Source: Asaia bogorensis
GTDB lineage: Bacteria > Pseudomonadota > Alphaproteobacteria > CACIAM-22H2
Direction: 5' to 3'
Length of the DNA: 64,000 nt
Assembly (NCBI GenBank): GCA_945901855.1
Contig: CAMDLT010000020.1
Location: forward strand, 2,066-66,065
Each line of letters opens with the position of its first letter. The stretch's first letter is position 1. This document shows, piece after piece, positions 6,400-30,076 of the stretch. The notes below the pieces were generated by a model that did not search any database, was not told where the DNA came from, and was given only the letters and a program-made list of their open reading frames with translations. A program made the position numbers and the translations under genes.

Positions 6400-7523
6400 A
6401 TGGCAGCGCTTGCAGAAGGTTCGGTCGATACCAAGCAGCTTGCGGTCGCCTCGCAATGGCAGCTTTTGTGGTGGGCGTTCCGTCGTCACCATCTGGCGAT
6501 GATTGGGCTGGTGGTGGTTGCCTTCCTGTATCTGATTGCCGCTATCCCGGGGTTTTTTACGACGAACGATCCGGCGCTCCAAAACGCGCGCGCCGCTTTC
6601 CATCCGCCGCAGTCGATTCACTTCTTCGATACAAGTGCGGACGGCAGTTTCGCGATTCGACCCTATATCCATCCCTACACGCTGCGCCGCGACCCAACGA
6701 CCTTGGCGGCGAACTATATCGAAGACCGCGAACGCAAAATCTATCTGGAGTTTTTCGGCAGAGGCTACGAATACAAATTGTTTGGTCTGTTCACGGCCGA
6801 CCGGCATCTGTTTGCGTCGAGCGATCCTCGCCAGCCTTTGTTTCTGCTCGGCGCAGACCGGCTTGGACGGTGCGTGTTCAGTCGTATCATGCAGGGCGCG
6901 CAGATATCGCTGTCGCTGGGTCTTGTCGGCGTATTTCTGTCGCTCGTGATCGGCGTGGTGCTGGGCGGAATTTCGGGCTATTTCGGCGGCAGATCGGATT
7001 TCGTGATCCAGCGGGTCATCGAATTCATTCTTTCGCTGCCCACGATTCCGATCTGGCTTGCCCTTGCCGCAGCGCTGCCGCAGGACTGGCCCGCGACGAC
7101 GCAGTATTTCATGATCACGCTGATCCTGTCGTTGACGAGCTGGGCGCAACTCGCGCGCGTCGTGCGCGGACGCTTCTTGAGCCTGCGCACCGAAGAGTTC
7201 GTGGTCGCGGCACGCCTGGACGGCGCTTCGGAAGGTCGCGTGATCTTCCGGCACATGCTGCCAAGTTTCATGAGCCACATCATCGCGAGCATTACGCTCG
7301 CGGTTCCTGCCATGATCCTGGCCGAAACTTCGCTCTCGTTTTTGGGTCTGGGGCTGCAGCCGCCGACAATTTCGTGGGGCGTGCTACTGCGCGAGGCGCA
7401 GAATATCCGTTCGATCGCGACGGCGCCGTGGCTGTTTGCGCCGGGCTTTGCCGTCGTCGTCGCGGTAATGGCGCTCAATTTTCTGGGCGACGGCTTGCGC
7501 GATGCGGCGGATCCTTACAACAA

Positions 7524-7527
<4 letters not shown>
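6400..7527 (+). CDS. ABC transporter permease, DppC-like, with a long N-terminal extension.
   Basis: 375 aa. The C-terminal 280 aa are a DppC/OppC-type TMD ending ...ALNFLGDGLRDAADPYNK. Its stop overlaps the ATPase start (ATGA). Confidence 0.85.
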
Positions 7528-9218
<1,691 letters not shown>

Positions 9219-23875: not shown

Positions 23876-24103
23876 ATGTCGGTTACCGTTCTCGATCTCA
23901 AGGGTCTCAATTGTCCGCTGCCGGTTTTGCGGACGAAAAAAGCGATGGCGAGCCTGCCTGCGGGCGCGGCGCTGCAAGTGCTGGCAACAGACCCTGGCGC
24001 CGTCAAGGATTTTGAAGCCCTGTGCCTGACGATCGGTGCTAAACTTTCGAATGTCGCTGAACAGGACGGCGTCTACGTGTTCGATATTCAAAAGAGCGCC
24101 TGA
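23876..24103 (+). CDS. tusA: TusA-like sulfur-carrier protein.
   Basis: 75 aa. LDLKGLNCPLPVLRTKKAM is the canonical CPxP TusA motif. Divergent from yeeE. Confidence 0.75.
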   Translation: MSVTVLDLKGLNCPLPVLRTKKAMASLPAGAALQVLATDPGAVKDFEALCLTIGAKLSNVAEQDGVYVFDIQKSA

Positions 24104-24117
24104 AACCGGTTCGTGGA

Positions 24118-25020
24118 TTGATCGACAGGAAATCGCACAACGAAGGCATCTGGTTGCTCGCTGCGTTGGCGCTCCTTTGGGGCGCCAATTGGCCTGCGAT
24201 GAAACTTGCCGTTGGCGAGATCGGCCCGTGGACCTTTCGTACAATTTGTCTTTATGTCGGCGCTGGCGGCCTATTTGCCGTGGCGCTTGTCCGACGCATT
24301 CCCATGGGATTGCCGCGGGGGCGTATCGCGGTTTTTGCCGCGACGTCGTTTTTGAACGTGACGGTGTGGCATGTGACATCGGCTTATGGCCTTACGTTGC
24401 TCGCGGCAGGGCGCGCTGTTTTGGTGGCATTCACAATGCCGCTTTGGGCCGCCTTGTTCGGCGCGTTGTTCTTCGGCGACAAGTTTACACAGCGCAAGGT
24501 CGTGGCCTTGAGCTTGGGGCTCGTGGGGTTAGGTTTTTTGGCGCTGCCCGCAAGCGATACGCTGGGCAGTTCGCCTGCCGGACTGGGGCTGATGCTGGCG
24601 GCTGCGGTCGGCTGGGGCGCGGGAACCGTGTGGCTCAAGGCCTCGCGCTTTGAAATGTCGGCCGTGACGCTGACTGCCTGGCAACTGGCCCTCGGCGGCG
24701 TACCGGTCATCGTTGGCATGCTGGCGCTCGAGGTTGCGGGTATCGGCGGCGGAACCGTGCTTAAAAACGACTCTCCGTCGCTGGCGGGCTTGGTTGGTTT
24801 GATCTATGCCGCGACTGTGCCCATGGTTTTCTGCAATTGGGCATGGTTCCGGGCACTGGAGATTTTGCCGGCGTCTCTGGCCTCGATCGGCACGCTGGCG
24901 GTCCCGGTCGTCGGCGTTCTGGCGTCGGCGCTGTTGCTGGGGGAGACGGTCGGCTGGTCGGAAATGATGGCGCTTGTGTGCGTCGTTGCAGCCCTTGCTT
25001 TGGCGTTGCTGCAGTTCTGA
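24118..25020 (+). CDS. DMT-superfamily (EamA-type) transporter.
   Basis: 300 aa, 10 TM helices, two EamA repeats. Confidence 0.7.
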   Translation: MIDRKSHNEGIWLLAALALLWGANWPAMKLAVGEIGPWTFRTICLYVGAGGLFAVALVRRIPMGLPRGRIAVFAATSFLNVTVWHVTSAYGLTLLAAGRAVLVAFTMPLWAALFGALFFGDKFTQRKVVALSLGLVGLGFLALPASDTLGSSPAGLGLMLAAAVGWGAGTVWLKASRFEMSAVTLTAWQLALGGVPVIVGMLALEVAGIGGGTVLKNDSPSLAGLVGLIYAATVPMVFCNWAWFRALEILPASLASIGTLAVPVVGVLASALLLGETVGWSEMMALVCVVAALALALLQF

Positions 25021-25022
25021 CC

Positions 25023-25631
25023 TTAGTCGGCGACCACGGCAGCTTTGCGGGCGGCTTTCCGGGTTTGGTGCCGATGCACGAGGAAAACCAAGCCCGTTGA
25101 AACCACGAAGACGCCCAACATGACATAGAGGAAGGAATGGACGATATCGCCGATCATGGCGTCGAGCGCGCGTCCAAACAGATAACCGAAACCCGCAAAC
25201 GTGGATGCCCAGACGAATGCCGCGACGAAATTGAGGGCGGCAAATCGCAGCGGGTTGATGCGCGCGACGCCCATCGCAAATGACGCAAGGTTCCGTACGC
25301 CATAAATGAACCGGAACGACAGGATGAACCACGTATCGTAGCGCTTGAGCAGGTCGAGTGCGCCGTCAACGCCCGCGCGCCATTTGGGACGCTTTTCGAG
25401 CAGAGCGCTGCCGTATCGCCGACCGATCCAGAACCACATTTGGTCGCCGGAGAAACTTCCGAACCAAGCCGTGAGCAGCAAAACCCAAATATTCAGCGTA
25501 TCTTGGGCGGCAGCCGCACCGGCAAAAATGACGAAGGTTTCGCCTTCCAAAAACGTCCAAACAAAAATTACCGCGTAAATCAGGACGCCGTATTGTGCAA
25601 CGAGGCTTTGAACATCGGTCGAGGGTTCCAA
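25023..25631 (-). CDS. DedA/SNARE-associated family membrane protein.
   Basis: 202 aa with the DedA-like pattern (...FLEGETFVIFAG...GSALLEKRPKW...). Confidence 0.65.
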   Translation of the reverse strand: MEPSTDVQSLVAQYGVLIYAVIFVWTFLEGETFVIFAGAAAAQDTLNIWVLLLTAWFGSFSGDQMWFWIGRRYGSALLEKRPKWRAGVDGALDLLKRYDTWFILSFRFIYGVRNLASFAMGVARINPLRFAALNFVAAFVWASTFAGFGYLFGRALDAMIGDIVHSFLYVMLGVFVVSTGLVFLVHRHQTRKAARKAAVVAD

Positions 25632-25745
25632 GCGACTGTCCTTACATCGAGATTGTCGGTCGTTTTTATGCTACAAATGGGCTATGACGCTATCATGTTC
25701 CGGTCTCGAAAAAAGATGCACGAACGCGATTTTCGGAGATTTGCG

Positions 25746-25994
25746 ATGAACGGTTATTCGGTTTTTGTTGCAATAGTGGCGCTTGGCTTGGGTATCGGAA
25801 TAGGTGCGCCGCCCGCACTGGCGGCCGACGATCCGCGCTCCAACAATGCGCCGCCAAAGGTCAATAAAGAGGCCGAAGAGCTCAATACCCGCAATCCGCG
25901 CGTGTTTCATGCGGGTCCCGGAAAGCCAATGGCAGGTGGAGTATGGGTTGCGCCGTCAAGCATACCCAAGAAACCCGCGGCTGACGCCAAATAA
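25746..25994 (+). CDS. Small secreted hypothetical protein.
   Basis: 82 aa. Signal peptide MNGYSVFVAIVALGLGIGIGAPPALAADD. Start chosen downstream of the dedA overlap. Low confidence. Confidence 0.35.
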   Translation: MNGYSVFVAIVALGLGIGIGAPPALAADDPRSNNAPPKVNKEAEELNTRNPRVFHAGPGKPMAGGVWVAPSSIPKKPAADAK

Positions 25995-25999
25995 TAGGC

Positions 26000-26413
26000 T
26001 TACGGCGAAGATTTAACCGGTACGGCGCTGAATGCAGGCGCCTCGGAGCACTCGGTCACGCCGCCCAGCGTGCGGATGCATCGATAGCGCGCATTGGGAT
26101 CGATTTTGGCGACCGGAAACTCGGGTTCGTTGAAGCGCGCCATTTGTTCGCAGATCAGACGTCGGTCGCCGGTTAAGAACATACCGTCGCAGCGTCCCGG
26201 CAAAAAATTCGGTCCGACTAAAATCGCGGCGCCAACCACGCCCGGCGTCACGATGCTTTGCACGTAAGGGGCAGCAAACGTGCTGACTTTGTCAGGTACC
26301 TTCGATAGCGGAGGGCTGCCGTGAACCGAAGGCAGTTTGGTGCAAGCCGCCGCGAATAGGGCAGCGCCAGCGACTAAACAAACGATCCGAATGGAGCGAT
26401 TTATCTTCAACAT
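26000..26413 (-). CDS. Secreted protein / possible lipoprotein, unknown function.
   Basis: 137 aa. N-terminus MLKINRSIRIVCLVAGAALFAAAC with a Cys after the hydrophobic stretch (weak lipobox). Preceded by a very AT-rich upstream region (26414-26466). Confidence 0.5.
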   Translation of the reverse strand: MLKINRSIRIVCLVAGAALFAAACTKLPSVHGSPPLSKVPDKVSTFAAPYVQSIVTPGVVGAAILVGPNFLPGRCDGMFLTGDRRLICEQMARFNEPEFPVAKIDPNARYRCIRTLGGVTECSEAPAFSAVPVKSSP

Positions 26414-26466
26414 TTCTAAAATTTATCCCAAATATATTAATGAATGATGAACATACGCTTGAGATT

Positions 26467-27246
26467 TCAAGATTCCCGTCGATAATCATCCAAATCTCTG
26501 AAGAATCTGGAAAAAGCCGATGCCGGTGTCACACCGGTAGCAGCCTCGAAGCGCACAACTTCTTGGAGCGTAAGCCGCTTCACGGGGGCAAAAAGCGTAT
26601 CGAAGATCGCCAAGAAATCGCTTTTGGCGAACTGAGCAACATCGAGACCATCGCCGATTTGGACATATTTGTTGGGGGCAAGGCCGATCGATGTCTGCTT
26701 GTGCTGCATGATGCGAAAGAACCATTCGCGGCGCGTGTCGAAGCGCTGGAACGATTGCGCAATCCGCACGAGCGTCAACCAGAAAATCGTCTGGGCGCGC
26801 GGATCCGAATAAAACGCGTCCCAACCAAAATCGTCGCCGCCTTTGTCGCGCGTTTCCTCCAGCACTTGCGCACAGGCGGCGTTCCATTCGCCTTCTCTCT
26901 CGCCGACCAATGCCTGGACGAAGAAAAAGAAATTGTGGAGCAGACTGCGGTCGAGCTGCGCGGACGCAAAAAAATCGTCAAGCGGATGCACGATCAAACG
27001 GCCGAACGCATTGACGCGACGATGCTGGTTCTGCGACTGGGCAATTGCCGCAACGATTTGGACGAAGACGGCGCGGTAGAAATTTTCGACTTCGCCGGCG
27101 TTTTTCATCGCATCGCCGATACGCGCGAGCTCGTCGTGGCCGACAGTACCGCCGTTTTTTGCGGCGGTTTCCTGGGCGGTCTTCACGAATGCGTCGAGCA
27201 TCGTGGTTGCCGCATGTCGGATCAGTTGGGGGCCTTTTGAAAACAT
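26467..27246 (-). CDS. Hypothetical protein, 259 aa, Trp/Phe-rich, no recognisable domain.
   Basis: I chose the minus strand over the codon-aligned plus-strand ORF 26440..27240 because the plus-strand translation is Arg/Glu-skewed in the way antisense shadows typically are. The strand call is uncertain. Confidence 0.45.
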   Translation of the reverse strand: MFSKGPQLIRHAATTMLDAFVKTAQETAAKNGGTVGHDELARIGDAMKNAGEVENFYRAVFVQIVAAIAQSQNQHRRVNAFGRLIVHPLDDFFASAQLDRSLLHNFFFFVQALVGEREGEWNAACAQVLEETRDKGGDDFGWDAFYSDPRAQTIFWLTLVRIAQSFQRFDTRREWFFRIMQHKQTSIGLAPNKYVQIGDGLDVAQFAKSDFLAIFDTLFAPVKRLTLQEVVRFEAATGVTPASAFSRFFRDLDDYRRES

Positions 27247-27351
27247 TCGGACAAGTCTAGACCACTTGGCGCCTCGGGGGGAAATGCTGCGAGGCTTCTA
27301 TCGGACGGATTTCTTGGCTAACATAAGGTTATCTCGGACGAGGATCAAAAA

Positions 27352-28026
27352 ATGTTGGAAATCAAACCAGTCGAAACGTCGGGTGGAATCGCTGTTCTGG
27401 ATGTCGGCGGCGACAAAGCGGGCCAAGCGACTCTTATTTGGGCCGACGACAATTTCTGCGAGGCGTTCGAAGGCGCGACCGTCGGCGCCGCCCCGTTCGG
27501 TGCGGACGCTGACCCGCAAGTGACGGCGGCCTTGGAGGGGTTGAAGCAGGGGGCTGTGGCACGTTTCGATGCGCCGACGGGCACGCTGTTTGGGCATCGT
27601 CTGGAAAGCGCCATCGGCATTGTCGGGCTGGGCGGCAAGCGTGTGCTGCTGGCGCTGGCAACCGCCCCGCAGATGCTGGGCCACACGGCCGATGCGCGTC
27701 TGGCCGAAACGCTCGACGCCGTGCCGGTCGCCGCGAGCATGATCAAAACGAGCGACGGGACGATTTTGTGGCTCAACGAAAATTTTCGGGAGTTGCTGGA
27801 CGGCAGCGAGTTCGATCTTCTGGGAACGTCGTTGGCCGACCATTTTGTGCTGCCCGGCGTATTTGCAACGCTGATGTCGGCAACAGACGCGATTGCGCCC
27901 TCCACGCCTGTCCCAACGCCCCTAAAGACGCTGTCCGGCATCATGACGCCGGTCGTTGCGACTGCAAAACGTATACGGTTTCGCGGTCACGACGCGGCGC
28001 TGGTGTGCCTGGCCAGCGGGTTTTAG
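27352..28026 (+). CDS. Stand-alone PAS-domain protein (two PAS-like halves, no output domain).
   Basis: 224 aa. The second half (ASMIKTSDGTILWLNENFRELLDGSEFDLLGTSLADHF) has the PAS-core pattern. The first half is more weakly PAS-like. No TM segment and no kinase, GGDEF or HTH domain. Confidence 0.5.
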   Translation: MLEIKPVETSGGIAVLDVGGDKAGQATLIWADDNFCEAFEGATVGAAPFGADADPQVTAALEGLKQGAVARFDAPTGTLFGHRLESAIGIVGLGGKRVLLALATAPQMLGHTADARLAETLDAVPVAASMIKTSDGTILWLNENFRELLDGSEFDLLGTSLADHFVLPGVFATLMSATDAIAPSTPVPTPLKTLSGIMTPVVATAKRIRFRGHDAALVCLASGF

Positions 28027-28034
28027 CGCGGGTT

Positions 28035-29105
28035 CTAGATCCCGGATTTGCGCGCGGCTTCTTCGAGTTCGTCGATCATCTGCATGCCCGGGACGACCTC
28101 CGAGCGCACGAACTCGAGGCGCTTGTTGGGGCCGCCGCTGGCGGTTGGAAACCGGTCGCGCCATAGCTGCATTTTGACCGACAGCCCGCAGAGCACGCCG
28201 CCGATCGAGCGGTGGTTCGAGAACACCATATCCTTCATGCGGCTGAAGCTGTCGGCGTTGATATCTTTCCAGAAATCGGCGCTCTTGCGGTTAAAAGCTT
28301 CGAACCGGCCCGTCAACGAGATGATCACGCCCGACATCGAATCTCGGGTCTTGTCCAGCATCTGCTTGGACATGCGATCGCCCTTGATCATCTGGTTGTC
28401 GTCGAGCGGCTTGACCCAGTCGAGAAAACTTTGGACCTGGGGCACGACCTTGTCGAGGCACGAGCGGAAATAGGCCAGCGACAAAAACGTATCGCCGTAA
28501 TCTTCGAGGAAGCGCGGAATTTCGGTCAGCGGCACGTTCAGCTTTTGGGACATCATGCGCAGATTCTTGAGCGCATCGTCGCGATTGGGCGCGGTGAGCA
28601 GCTTCATGATGTCCGAAACGTCGTTCACCTCGAAATCCGCCGTGCCGTAGATCTGCTGTATCAACGGATGGGTAAACACCTTCATGTGTTGCGTAAGTTC
28701 TTGGCGTTTGCCTTCCGAAAGCTGCAATTCCTTGTTGACGTCGATATTGAGAGAGAGCGAACGCAGCGCAACGCGCAGCGTGTAGACGTCGAAAGACGGA
28801 ATGGCGCTCAGATTTTGCAGCAGCGGCATGTCCTTGCGCAGTTCGGTCGCACAGCTTTGGAAAACGCTGTGCAATGCGTCGAGGGGAACTTGCGCCGATT
28901 TGTGGCCTTGGTATTTGTAGAGTTCGACAACCGAATCGAGCCGCACGTTCTTTATGAGACGCAGCCTGCGCAACCCCGGCGTTTCGAGCGGGATAATGCT
29001 GAGGGGCAAGATATGAAGCGCATCTTGACCCTCCGCATCGTATTCGGCATTGGCAGCTTCGCCTGAAGCAGGCGTCGGACCATCGATCTTGGTGCTTTGT
29101 TCCAT
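28035..29105 (-). CDS. Hypothetical cytoplasmic protein, 356 aa; no recognisable domain; co-oriented directly downstream of the cheZ-like gene.
   Basis: Long ORF with protein-like composition. GC is lower here (about 57%) than in the flanks. 78-nt spacer to the cheZ-like gene on the same strand. Confidence 0.6.
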   Translation of the reverse strand: MEQSTKIDGPTPASGEAANAEYDAEGQDALHILPLSIIPLETPGLRRLRLIKNVRLDSVVELYKYQGHKSAQVPLDALHSVFQSCATELRKDMPLLQNLSAIPSFDVYTLRVALRSLSLNIDVNKELQLSEGKRQELTQHMKVFTHPLIQQIYGTADFEVNDVSDIMKLLTAPNRDDALKNLRMMSQKLNVPLTEIPRFLEDYGDTFLSLAYFRSCLDKVVPQVQSFLDWVKPLDDNQMIKGDRMSKQMLDKTRDSMSGVIISLTGRFEAFNRKSADFWKDINADSFSRMKDMVFSNHRSIGGVLCGLSVKMQLWRDRFPTASGGPNKRLEFVRSEVVPGMQMIDELEEAARKSGI

Positions 29106-29182
29106 GTTGAGCGCTTTTTACGCCGTAAGAGCCGTCAATACCAGCCCCGATCTTGGTCTGCGGTTGTTGGCGCGTCCGCGCA

Positions 29183-30076
29183 TCAGTCGAAAAGCTTGTC
29201 AATATCCGCCTGCGACGCCGTCGCGCCAGCAGTGGCGGGCGCGGGAGAGGGCGGCGCTGGCGGCGGCGTAGCTTGTTTGGCAGCTGCCGGGGGCGGGGCG
29301 GGCGCTGGGGCGGGTGTCGGCGGTGCTATGGGTGCGGGTGCGTCAAACCCTGCACCGGCCAACAGCGCGTCGATCTCATCTTGCGTGCGGCCTTGGCCGG
29401 GCATAGCCGGTCCATTCAACAGATGCGCATCGCCGCGGGTGTCGGCATTTGCATCGCGTTTTGCAACGCCGCCCGGCAGATTCTCGGCGCCCCAAATTTC
29501 GACCATCGCGTTGACGCGCTGGTCGATATAGCGAAGCGTGCTGACGACTTTGGAGATGCGCTGGCCGGTAATATCTTGGAACGAGCAGGCCGTAAAAATC
29601 TCGGTTGCTTGGTCGCTCAGCACCTGGCCTGCTTCGGCGCATTCGGTCGGAAGATTTCCGGCAACTTCCATAATGCGCTCGGCTGCATTGAGAATATCCG
29701 AGGTCGCGCGCTCGGTCGAAGCCACGATCATGTCGAGCTCGCTGGTCGCGCTGTTGATGCGGTTGTCGGTAACGGCGAGTTTCGGGTCCTTGTTGTAGAT
29801 CGAAGCGATTTCGGATTTTGCGGCCTGGATATGGGCGGCCATGCTTTGCAATTCGGCACGCAGCACATCGATGCTCTGGGTTTCCTTGGCACTCGACATT
29901 TGCTTGATCGTCCACTCGCGGAACGAGGCGGCGATGCGCCGCGCTTCGTCGAGCGCCACTACGCGCGAGCGCACGTCGCGGGCGCGCAAGAAGGCGCGGC
30001 CGCGCGTGCTGTTCAACAGCGCGTCCTCGATGGCGAAATATTCTTCGTCCGAAAGTTCGATCTTCGTCATTGGCAA
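29183..30076 (-). CDS. cheZ: CheZ-family CheY-P phosphatase homolog; orphan.
   Basis: The C-terminal half carries CheZ hallmarks: FTACSFQDITGQRISKV (the catalytic-Q FQDLTGQ motif), LLNGPAMPGQ (compare LLNGPQ) and a terminal DEIDALLAGAGFD (compare E. coli DDLLDSLGF). A Pro/Ala-rich linker lies near the C-terminus. Confidence 0.75.
   Translation of the reverse strand: MPMTKIELSDEEYFAIEDALLNSTRGRAFLRARDVRSRVVALDEARRIAASFREWTIKQMSSAKETQSIDVLRAELQSMAAHIQAAKSEIASIYNKDPKLAVTDNRINSATSELDMIVASTERATSDILNAAERIMEVAGNLPTECAEAGQVLSDQATEIFTACSFQDITGQRISKVVSTLRYIDQRVNAMVEIWGAENLPGGVAKRDANADTRGDAHLLNGPAMPGQGRTQDEIDALLAGAGFDAPAPIAPPTPAPAPAPPPAAAKQATPPPAPPSPAPATAGATASQADIDKLFD

Follow-up and report, generated by a model that had tools for sequence, protein, structure and literature searches.

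Coding strand of the U259 gene and genomic context of its divergent PAS-domain neighbour in an Asaia bogorensis contig

In a 64,000-nucleotide stretch of contig CAMDLT010000020.1 from Asaia bogorensis (hereafter the window), two open reading frames (ORFs) on opposite strands cover the same DNA at 26.44–27.25 kb, and a divergently oriented gene for a small PAS-domain protein (PAS224) lies beside them. Comparison with orthologous loci identifies the minus strand as the only coding strand of this segment, and the plus ORF is read as a passive shadow of the minus-strand gene, U259. On the evidence of its homologues, U259 is assigned to an uncharacterised alphaproteobacterial family under purifying selection. 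PAS224 became the neighbour of U259 through a rearrangement in the lineage of the window, and the evolutionary neighbours of the PAS224 gene are chemotaxis genes (cheA-cheW and cheZ) rather than U259. This explanation as a whole, comprising the shadow ORF, the U259 gene, the rearranged neighbour PAS224 and the inferences attached to them, is assigned a probability of approximately 0.8. The two overlapping ORFs are as follows.

26440..27240, plus strand: shadow ORF, read as a non-gene; 266 codons with an ATG start, codon-aligned antisense to U259
26467..27246, minus strand: U259 gene, 259 amino acids (aa), identified by homologues, selection and the GC content of orthologues at codon position 3 (GC3)

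The coding strand at 26.44–27.25 kb

Both ORFs, which the initial annotation had described as codon-aligned antisense frames, are confirmed. Their triplet boundaries fall at coordinates equal to 1 modulo 3, and position 1 of one frame is position 3 of the other. GC content by codon position is 0.652/0.401/0.607 in the plus ORF and 0.612/0.408/0.654 in U259, and the earlier estimate of a GC3 of about 60% in both frames was thus roughly right. Because the confident genes of the window have GC3 values of 0.70–0.85, composition inside the window is only weakly informative, and it weakly favours the minus strand. Composition alone as a strand test, which gave this slight lean and nothing further, was replaced by comparative tests. 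The region from 24001 to 30000 has a GC content of 0.576–0.596, below that of most of the window (0.61–0.66), and the GC3 of U259 in the window (0.65) is well under that of its orthologues (0.82).

Searching the protein collection with the minus-strand product yields 23 clusters of homologues (33–98% identity, 257–259 aa), 21 of which share 63–98% identity and are all exactly 259 aa in length; the remaining two share 33–36% identity and are 257 aa long. A genome scan located U259 at 44 Rhodospirillales loci, in Tagaea, Telmatospirillum, metagenome-assembled genomes (MAGs) labelled as Azospirillum, Ferrovibrio, Phaeospirillum and Magnetospirillum. Nearly all loci compared in this analysis are metagenome-assembled. 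The sense frame is open over 255–259 codons in all but one of the 43 orthologues examined, and the antisense frame is interrupted by one to three stops in approximately 20 of the same 43. Among 17 ungapped orthologues, 56% of the nucleotide differences occur at codon position 3 of the sense frame. When the window is compared with its orthologues, the ratio of nonsynonymous to synonymous substitution rates (dN/dS) is 0.13–0.27 for the sense frame and 0.82–1.24 for the antisense frame, and amino-acid identity is 62–74% and 41–49%, respectively, at a nucleotide identity of 67–75%. The GC3 of the orthologues is 0.82 in the sense frame and 0.64 in the antisense frame. Public gene calls for loci L052 and L053 likewise include a 259-aa gene on the U259 strand.

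The single interrupted sense frame belongs to a Tagaea MAG (L003), in which an in-frame TAG at codon 152 (6454-6456) replaces a Gln of the relatives and the remainder of the frame is intact. This TAG could reflect either an error in sequencing or a nonsense mutation of recent origin.

Because homologues, per-frame dN/dS, orthologue stops and GC3 all favour the minus strand, the plus ORF is interpreted as a shadow. The initial annotation had preferred the minus strand on the grounds of an Arg/Glu skew in the plus-strand translation and had proposed a dN/dS comparison per frame across orthologous loci. The skew is present (R 10.2%, E 9.8%), and the preference is upheld by the homologues, by the proposed comparison and by the stops in the orthologous antisense frames.

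The overlap itself requires no special biology. A codon-aligned antisense frame remains open where TTA, CTA and TCA codons are missing from the sense gene. Taken together, the three codons occur at 0.49 per 100 codons across the gene-like frames of the window, and U259 contains one of them in total, a TCA at codon 3; the Poisson probability of at most one such codon in 259 is 0.64. The plus ORF is therefore open because U259 is almost devoid of TTA, CTA and TCA, as is usual for a genome with 62% GC. The window contains 44 gene-like frames of 200 codons or more, and in 36% of them a shadow is open across 90% or more of the frame; the coincidence of ORF on ORF is no greater than expected by chance. 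In its full-length codon-aligned antisense frame, its richness in Arg and Glu, the rarity of TTA, CTA and TCA and the absence of selection of its own, the plus ORF differs in no respect from the shadow ORFs of GC-rich genomes and is a textbook case of them.

The alternative that the plus ORF is a true antisense overlapping gene, alone or alongside U259, is assigned a negligible probability. Its frame is long (266 codons) with an ATG start and is wholly open in about half of the orthologues, but codon usage alone accounts for this openness (P = 0.64), and the frame is broken one to three times in the approximately 20 orthologues noted above. A sigma-70-like hexamer pair is found at 26459 on the plus strand, but it lies 19 nt downstream of the ATG at 26440 and cannot drive the full-length ORF, and this one promoter-like hit compares with 1.1 expected by chance. 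The plus ORF has no family match in the libraries scanned, and its sole Pfam match (15.7 bits) is spurious. Translated antisense overlapping genes reported in other bacteria show purifying selection or ribosome footprints (bioRxiv 10.1101/2021.02.09.430400; PMC9927249), whereas the plus ORF lacks purifying selection: its antisense dN/dS is close to 1, and its amino-acid identity is far under the nucleotide identity. Neither purifying selection on the antisense frame nor conservation of that frame is thus observed. What looked like ambiguity between the strands is what shadow ORFs normally produce in GC-rich genomes, and a false lead is removed.

The U259 family and its upstream region

U259 is a mostly helical, Phe-rich (10%) protein that is predicted to be cytoplasmic and soluble. 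It has no match in Pfam, NCBIfam, PADLOC or PHROGs, and sequence-profile searches of the Protein Data Bank (PDB) with narrow and broad alignments returned noise only. The AlphaFold2 (AF2) model of U259, with a predicted local distance difference test (pLDDT) score of 74, is helical with one β-hairpin and three segments below 50; a search with this model found no fold match among solved structures. An exhaustive profile search retrieved 353 cluster representatives (50% identity) at E <= 1e-3 and 204 at E <= 1e-10. Most family members are 250–290 aa long, and some reach 350–485 aa through N-terminal extensions that are Pro/Ala-rich or bear repeats. In the clusters whose names were looked up, the entry is 'hypothetical protein' in every case.

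The extensions of three distant family members (P0131, P0169 and P0110) include tandem repeats of approximately 30 aa with the motif (L/M)PL(D/E)HDG in some and Pro/Ala-rich low-complexity sequence in others, and have no Pfam match.

In an alignment of 89 family members, Arg83 and Arg172 are invariant, as no other residue is, and Arg77, Arg100, Gly115, Trp142, Phe166 and Trp175 are conserved in at least 90%. The alignment contains no conserved catalytic His/Asp set. The conserved residues would suit a binding surface better than a catalytic centre, and U259 may be a non-enzymatic binding or effector module. A Pfam scan of the 89 members, from 150 representatives listed, detected one domain only, an N-terminal receiver domain (Response_reg, 2e-17) that precedes the U259-like domain in the 395-aa protein P0176. 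A relative of P0176, P0343 (403 aa), is encoded on eight metagenome contigs of up to 305 kb (L055 6001-7212), in a stable housekeeping neighbourhood with ABM, amidohydrolase and purine biosynthesis genes. Because a receiver domain is fused in front of it in this branch of the family, the U259-like domain can, as the fusion suggests, serve as a signalling output. The branch resembles orphan response regulators with a helical output domain. U259 of the window differs from these in that it lacks a receiver domain (Pfam) and matches neither a Pfam family, including HDOD and HD-GYP, nor a solved fold.

The gene occurs singly in at least four unrelated neighbourhoods, and its neighbours vary by clade (PurU-like, EAL, MobA/XdhC, glutamate-synthase-like, PrmA, epimerase, DEAD helicase and DctM). 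A functional assignment of U259 by guilt by association was set aside, since these neighbours are of housekeeping types and include no conserved partner.

The region upstream of U259 contains a promoter-like pair.

27255..27286, minus strand: U259 promoter-like pair, which recurs upstream of U259 in unrelated contexts

The −35-like element is CATTTCCCC (27278-27286), and the −10-like element is GGTCTAGAC (27255-27263), which encloses the perfect palindrome GTCTAGAC (27255-27262) and fits the alphaproteobacterial −10 consensus, GCTANAWC. The recurring arrangement before U259 is ATTTCCCAA, approximately 17 nt and then GCTAAAGTC, GTCTAGACT, GCTAGTCTC or GTTAGACTC. The pair is clear in the window and in L001-L003 and L010-L018; the −35-like element is diverged in L004, L006 and L009 (CATTTTAACCAA), and neither element is recognisable in L005. 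In the window, 8 nt separate the end of the −10-like element from the U259 ATG (about 8–10 nt across loci), and no Shine-Dalgarno sequence is found upstream of U259. Because the promoter-like pair lies so close to the ATG and a Shine-Dalgarno sequence is missing, the U259 mRNA is probably leaderless or nearly so. A scan with promoter and terminator consensus sequences gave no more hits than in shuffled sequence, and an Rfam scan of 25.9–29.3 kb returned nothing.

Several database entries for the closest relatives of U259 (the P0001 cluster) are 244 aa long, implying a start at Met16. Residues 1–15 of U259 are conserved, with M1, G5, P6 and R10 invariant among close relatives. This conservation and the promoter-like geometry upstream indicate that the 259-aa start is correct rather than Met16.

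PAS224 and its genomic arrangement

PAS224 is transcribed divergently from U259 and contains two PAS-like modules.

27352..28026, plus strand: PAS224, a stand-alone protein of 224 aa with two PAS-like domains, identified by homologues, the ratio of nonsynonymous to synonymous differences (pN/pS) and the predicted fold
27388..27657, plus strand: N-terminal degenerate PAS-like domain (residues ~13–102), assigned from model topology
27697..28017, plus strand: C-terminal PAS domain, the conserved core of PAS224 (residues ~116–222)
27311..27344, plus strand: PAS224 upstream elements, with the conserved TTCTTGGCT at 27311-27319 and the Shine-Dalgarno sequence GAGGA at 27340-27344

PAS224 has 31 homologous clusters (90% identity) of 219–225 aa at 47–99% identity, and pN/pS is 0.48–0.55 in the sense frame and 1.1–1.2 in the antisense frame. 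The PAS-core pattern noticed in the initial annotation is found as DGTILWLNENFRELLDG at residues 135–151. The best Pfam match of the window protein is PAS_4 (residues 121–177, E 6.8e-4), which at 20.3 bits falls below the gathering threshold of 23.1; PAS_9, PAS and PAS_8 are weaker. Because the window copy is below this threshold, the PAS assignment rests on family members, the family profile and the predicted fold. At E <= 1e-3, 18 of 32 homologues match PAS_4 (best 3.9e-6), 13 match PAS_8 (2.2e-7) and 12 match PAS (7.8e-6). Against PDB sequences, the family profile matches the PAS domains of PpsR (2.6e-5) and FixL (3.5e-3). The AF2 model of PAS224 (pLDDT 80.5; predicted template-modelling score (pTM) 0.51) comprises modules at residues 13–102 and 127–222 with a helix at 106–123 between them, and displays the five-stranded antiparallel β-sheet flanked by helices that is characteristic of the PAS fold. 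The earlier PAS identification thus gains from the family matches, the profile and the predicted fold, and is qualified by the score of the window copy.

The N-terminal module is predicted to adopt a β-β-α-α-β-β-β topology. Residues 1–110 have no Pfam match, and the N half evolves 2.3-fold faster than the C half (pN 0.41 vs 0.17). The two halves resemble each other weakly in hhalign (E 0.083, 19 in-register columns, LVWADxxF vs ILWLNxxF); an internal duplication was considered on this basis and dropped because the signal is weak. In the C-terminal domain, His164 is nearly invariant among the homologues and presumably corresponds to the 'hP' position that is common in PAS domains. No LOV-type NCRFL-like or Cys motif is apparent in the sequence by eye.

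The initial annotation had found no kinase, GGDEF or helix-turn-helix (HTH) output in this protein, and Pfam likewise detects PAS families only. Because the two predicted modules occupy all 224 residues, the lack of an output domain is confirmed at the level of sequence. PAS224 differs from the PpsR PAS domains (PDB 4hh2 and 4l9f) and from single-PAS modules (3mfx, 3olo and FixL 1d06) in that it lacks any HTH, kinase, GGDEF or methyl-accepting chemotaxis protein (MCP) domain and in that no sequence profile recognises its diverged N-terminal domain. It is classed by sequence as a further member of the very large PAS superfamily, among the PAS-only proteins without an output domain that are already known.

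The PAS224 gene is found in two arrangements. In type A, the order is EamA, DedA-like, a small ORF, a lipoprotein gene and U259, divergent from PAS224, followed on the opposite strand by U356 (a 356-aa protein), CheZ and an iron-containing alcohol dehydrogenase (Fe-ADH). Type A is represented by the window, L001-L003, L052 and L053, with 56–100% PAS identity to the window. In type B, the order is NMT1-like, cheA, cheW and PAS224 on the same strand, with a gap of 65–70 bp before PAS224, and then the U356, CheZ and Fe-ADH block. The cheA of type B encodes an Hpt-kinase-CheW-REC hybrid of approximately 900 aa. Type B is represented by L045/L046, L047/L048, L054 and one JGI contig, with 47–52% PAS identity to the window. 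The type-B genomes hold the U259-lipoprotein-DedA-EamA block intact elsewhere; in WGNX01000003.1, U259 (L010, range 304074-316841) lies approximately 60 kb from the PAS gene (L045, range 370489-383148). No cheA or cheW is present within the 64-kb window.

The adjacency of U259 and PAS224 is confined to the lineage of the window. Because type-B genomes keep the two genes apart, with the PAS gene after cheA-cheW, the adjacency is attributed from gene order to one lineage-specific rearrangement with its breakpoint between the two upstream regions. The upstream regions themselves are consistent with this origin. In the alignment of type-A intergenic regions the U259 blocks are invariant, and the intergenic blocks split into a U259 set and a PAS224 set, each of which stays with its own gene. 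A CTTGGCT core precedes PAS224 both in type A, after U259, and in type B, directly past the cheW stop codon; it reads TTCTTGGCT in the window, L052, L053 and L045, TTCCTTGGCT in L047 and CGCTTGGCT in L054. In type A and type B alike, U259 and PAS224 each retain upstream elements of their own, which favours two independent transcription units and counts against co-regulation as a sign of partnership. Sigma-54 and EcfG readings of the intergenic blocks were dropped by eye, as key positions vary between loci.

The GAGGA sequence lies 7 nt upstream of the PAS224 ATG and is overlapped in the window by a weak hairpin of 4 bp (27333-27344; −7.5 kcal/mol, z −2.0). In the type-B homologues, the Shine-Dalgarno sequence is masked by hairpins of 10–13 bp (z −2.6 to −3.0). 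These have the form CCTCTTCGC-N4-GCGRAGRGG (L045 5965-5995, L047 5968-6000 and L054 5570-5600), and base changes between species keep the pairing. The type-B hairpin may be a translational control element.

The initial annotation had suggested that the PAS protein might act through a partner, possibly one of the neighbouring unknown proteins. In the form considered here, PAS224 would regulate U259 in trans, the two making up a split sensor-effector pair co-regulated from the divergent intergenic region. The adjacency is seen in six loci with strongly conserved intergenic blocks, no partner domain can be recognised in either protein, and the receiver fusion elsewhere in the family indicates that a U259-like domain can be placed behind a sensory or regulatory module. 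However, the conserved blocks move separately with their own genes, the two genes lie approximately 60 kb apart in a sister genome, and U259 occurs without a PAS224 homologue within 6 kb in L004-L009, L010-L018, Ferrovibrio and Magnetospirillum. The U259 family is also far broader (353 clusters at 50% identity) than that of PAS224 (31 clusters at 90%). The split pair is therefore considered improbable. A variant, in which the U259 family is an undescribed signalling output or adaptor domain that came under control of PAS224 in trans after the rearrangement in the window lineage, draws on four family-wide conserved arginines, two tryptophans and the receiver-fused branch, and is rated marginally lower still.

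The best-supported reading of the PAS224 gene places it in a chemotaxis neighbourhood: cheA-cheW precedes it in the sister lineage, and cheZ lies two genes away on its far side in every locus. A co-directional link to core che genes is seen in type B and is not seen in the window or the other type-A genomes. A chemotaxis-related role for PAS224 is proposed tentatively on this basis, at somewhat less than even odds. Soluble PAS chemotaxis sensors such as Aer2 (PDB 4hi4) likewise have PAS modules encoded with che genes; the PAS224 profile matches the Aer2 PAS domain very weakly (E 0.54). Aer2 and AerC of Azospirillum dock to CheA/CheW through an MCP signalling domain. PAS224 lacks such a domain and would thus not be a chemoreceptor in the usual sense, so that a link to the array would need another contact. 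A literature search found neither a report of a stand-alone PAS protein that acts on CheA nor one that deals with the PAS224 family.

About equally likely is that PAS224 is a generic small PAS protein unrelated to chemotaxis, for example one that buffers a ligand or works with an unlinked kinase, and that its position among che genes is inherited synteny. The gene has its own promoter-like element and has been retained in the window lineage even though detached from cheA-cheW; unrelated genes for Fe-ADH and a glutamine-synthetase-like protein are equally syntenic; and the constant neighbour U356 occurs in unrelated contexts in other genera. Against a generic role, three or four type-B species have the PAS gene 65–70 bp behind cheW, in the same orientation, and bracketed by cheA-cheW and cheZ.

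In the proposed mechanism, PAS224 would sense a small ligand or a redox signal in the conserved pocket of its C-terminal PAS domain and would act by protein-protein contact only. Its likeliest targets would be the chemotaxis components encoded around it (CheA/CheW and CheZ) rather than U259, which would keep its promoter-like pair in several contexts and probably be translated from a leaderless mRNA. Several points weigh against this explanation. Window PAS224 scores under the Pfam curated cutoff, and its fold is taken from a predicted model with a pTM of only 0.51. The failed fold search with U259 is weak evidence for a new fold given the moderate confidence of the model, and the receiver fusion is a single 50%-identity cluster among the 89 members (150 representatives listed) to which Pfam was applied. 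PAS224 is linked to cheA-cheW and cheZ only within a narrow clade, where general synteny also holds, for example of Fe-ADH, and this linkage may be historical; the case for a cheA-cheW-PAS224 operon is further weakened because PAS224 seems to keep its own promoter-like element behind cheW. Functional statements beyond coding status and the PAS fold are all inferential.

Conserved hypothetical families are common, and nothing here would surprise a specialist; the main value lies in a closed strand question and a corrected partnership. U259 and U356 represent two well-conserved families without a match in Pfam, NCBIfam or solved structures and are reasonable targets for structural and genetic work in Rhodospirillales.

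Flanking genes

The genes around U259 and PAS224 are as follows.

28035..29105, minus strand: U356, convergent neighbour of PAS224, 356 aa; conserved adjacency, listed as context and not as a demonstrated partner
29183..30076, minus strand: CheZ-like phosphatase gene, upstream of U356; Pfam CheZ, E 8e-16, 59 bits vs a cutoff of 30.7
26000..26413, minus strand: predicted lipoprotein gene, 53 bp downstream of U259, 137 aa; the N-terminus ends in ...LFAAAC, a lipobox-like sequence

U356 adjoins the PAS gene in every PAS224 locus seen and is the most conserved protein of the block, with 86–88% identity to its orthologues compared with 48–79% for the proteins of its neighbours. By individual neighbour (U356 in L045 at 6669-7730 and in L049-L051), identity is 48–58% for PAS224, 77–86% for CheZ and 75–79% for Fe-ADH. 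At least 980 homologues are found in Azospirillaceae and Rhodospirillales, and they contain no Pfam domain. The GC content of U356 at codon position 2 is unusually low (0.36). The gene occurs in unrelated contexts in Azospirillum largimobile, Aerophototrophica crusticola and Nitrospirillum viridazoti, and its neighbours in other genera include an MCP with a PilZ domain and GAF histidine kinases. U356 was rejected as a dedicated partner of PAS224, since the Azospirillum, Aerophototrophica and Nitrospirillum copies have neither PAS224 nor CheZ nearby.

The stop codons of the convergent PAS224 and U356 genes are 8 nt apart (28024-28037), and no terminator-like structure is found between them. Because of this 8-nt gap without a terminator-like structure, the two transcripts must overlap or end inside the opposite gene. 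The CheZ gene is conserved beside U356 and PAS224 in both arrangements. Its product has 297 aa, of which the Pfam CheZ domain covers residues 146–244 only, and it carries a long Pro/Ala-rich tail (…APAPIAPPTPAPAPAPPPAAAKQATPPPAPPSPAPATAG…).

On the other side, the lipoprotein gene follows U259 in L002, L003, L008 and L010-L018 and is absent from L004-L007, L009 and the Ferrovibrio group. In a Telmatospirillum MAG (L001), a gene for a dCache-HisKA-HATPase sensor kinase (6944-8644) is inserted between U259 and the lipoprotein gene. The 184-aa ORF at 25440-25994 on the plus strand is conserved in relatives only over its C-terminal ~55 residues, and gene callers place an 85-aa gene between the DedA-like and lipoprotein genes in L052 and L053 (5365-5622). 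The true gene at 25440-25994 is probably much shorter than the 184-aa ORF.

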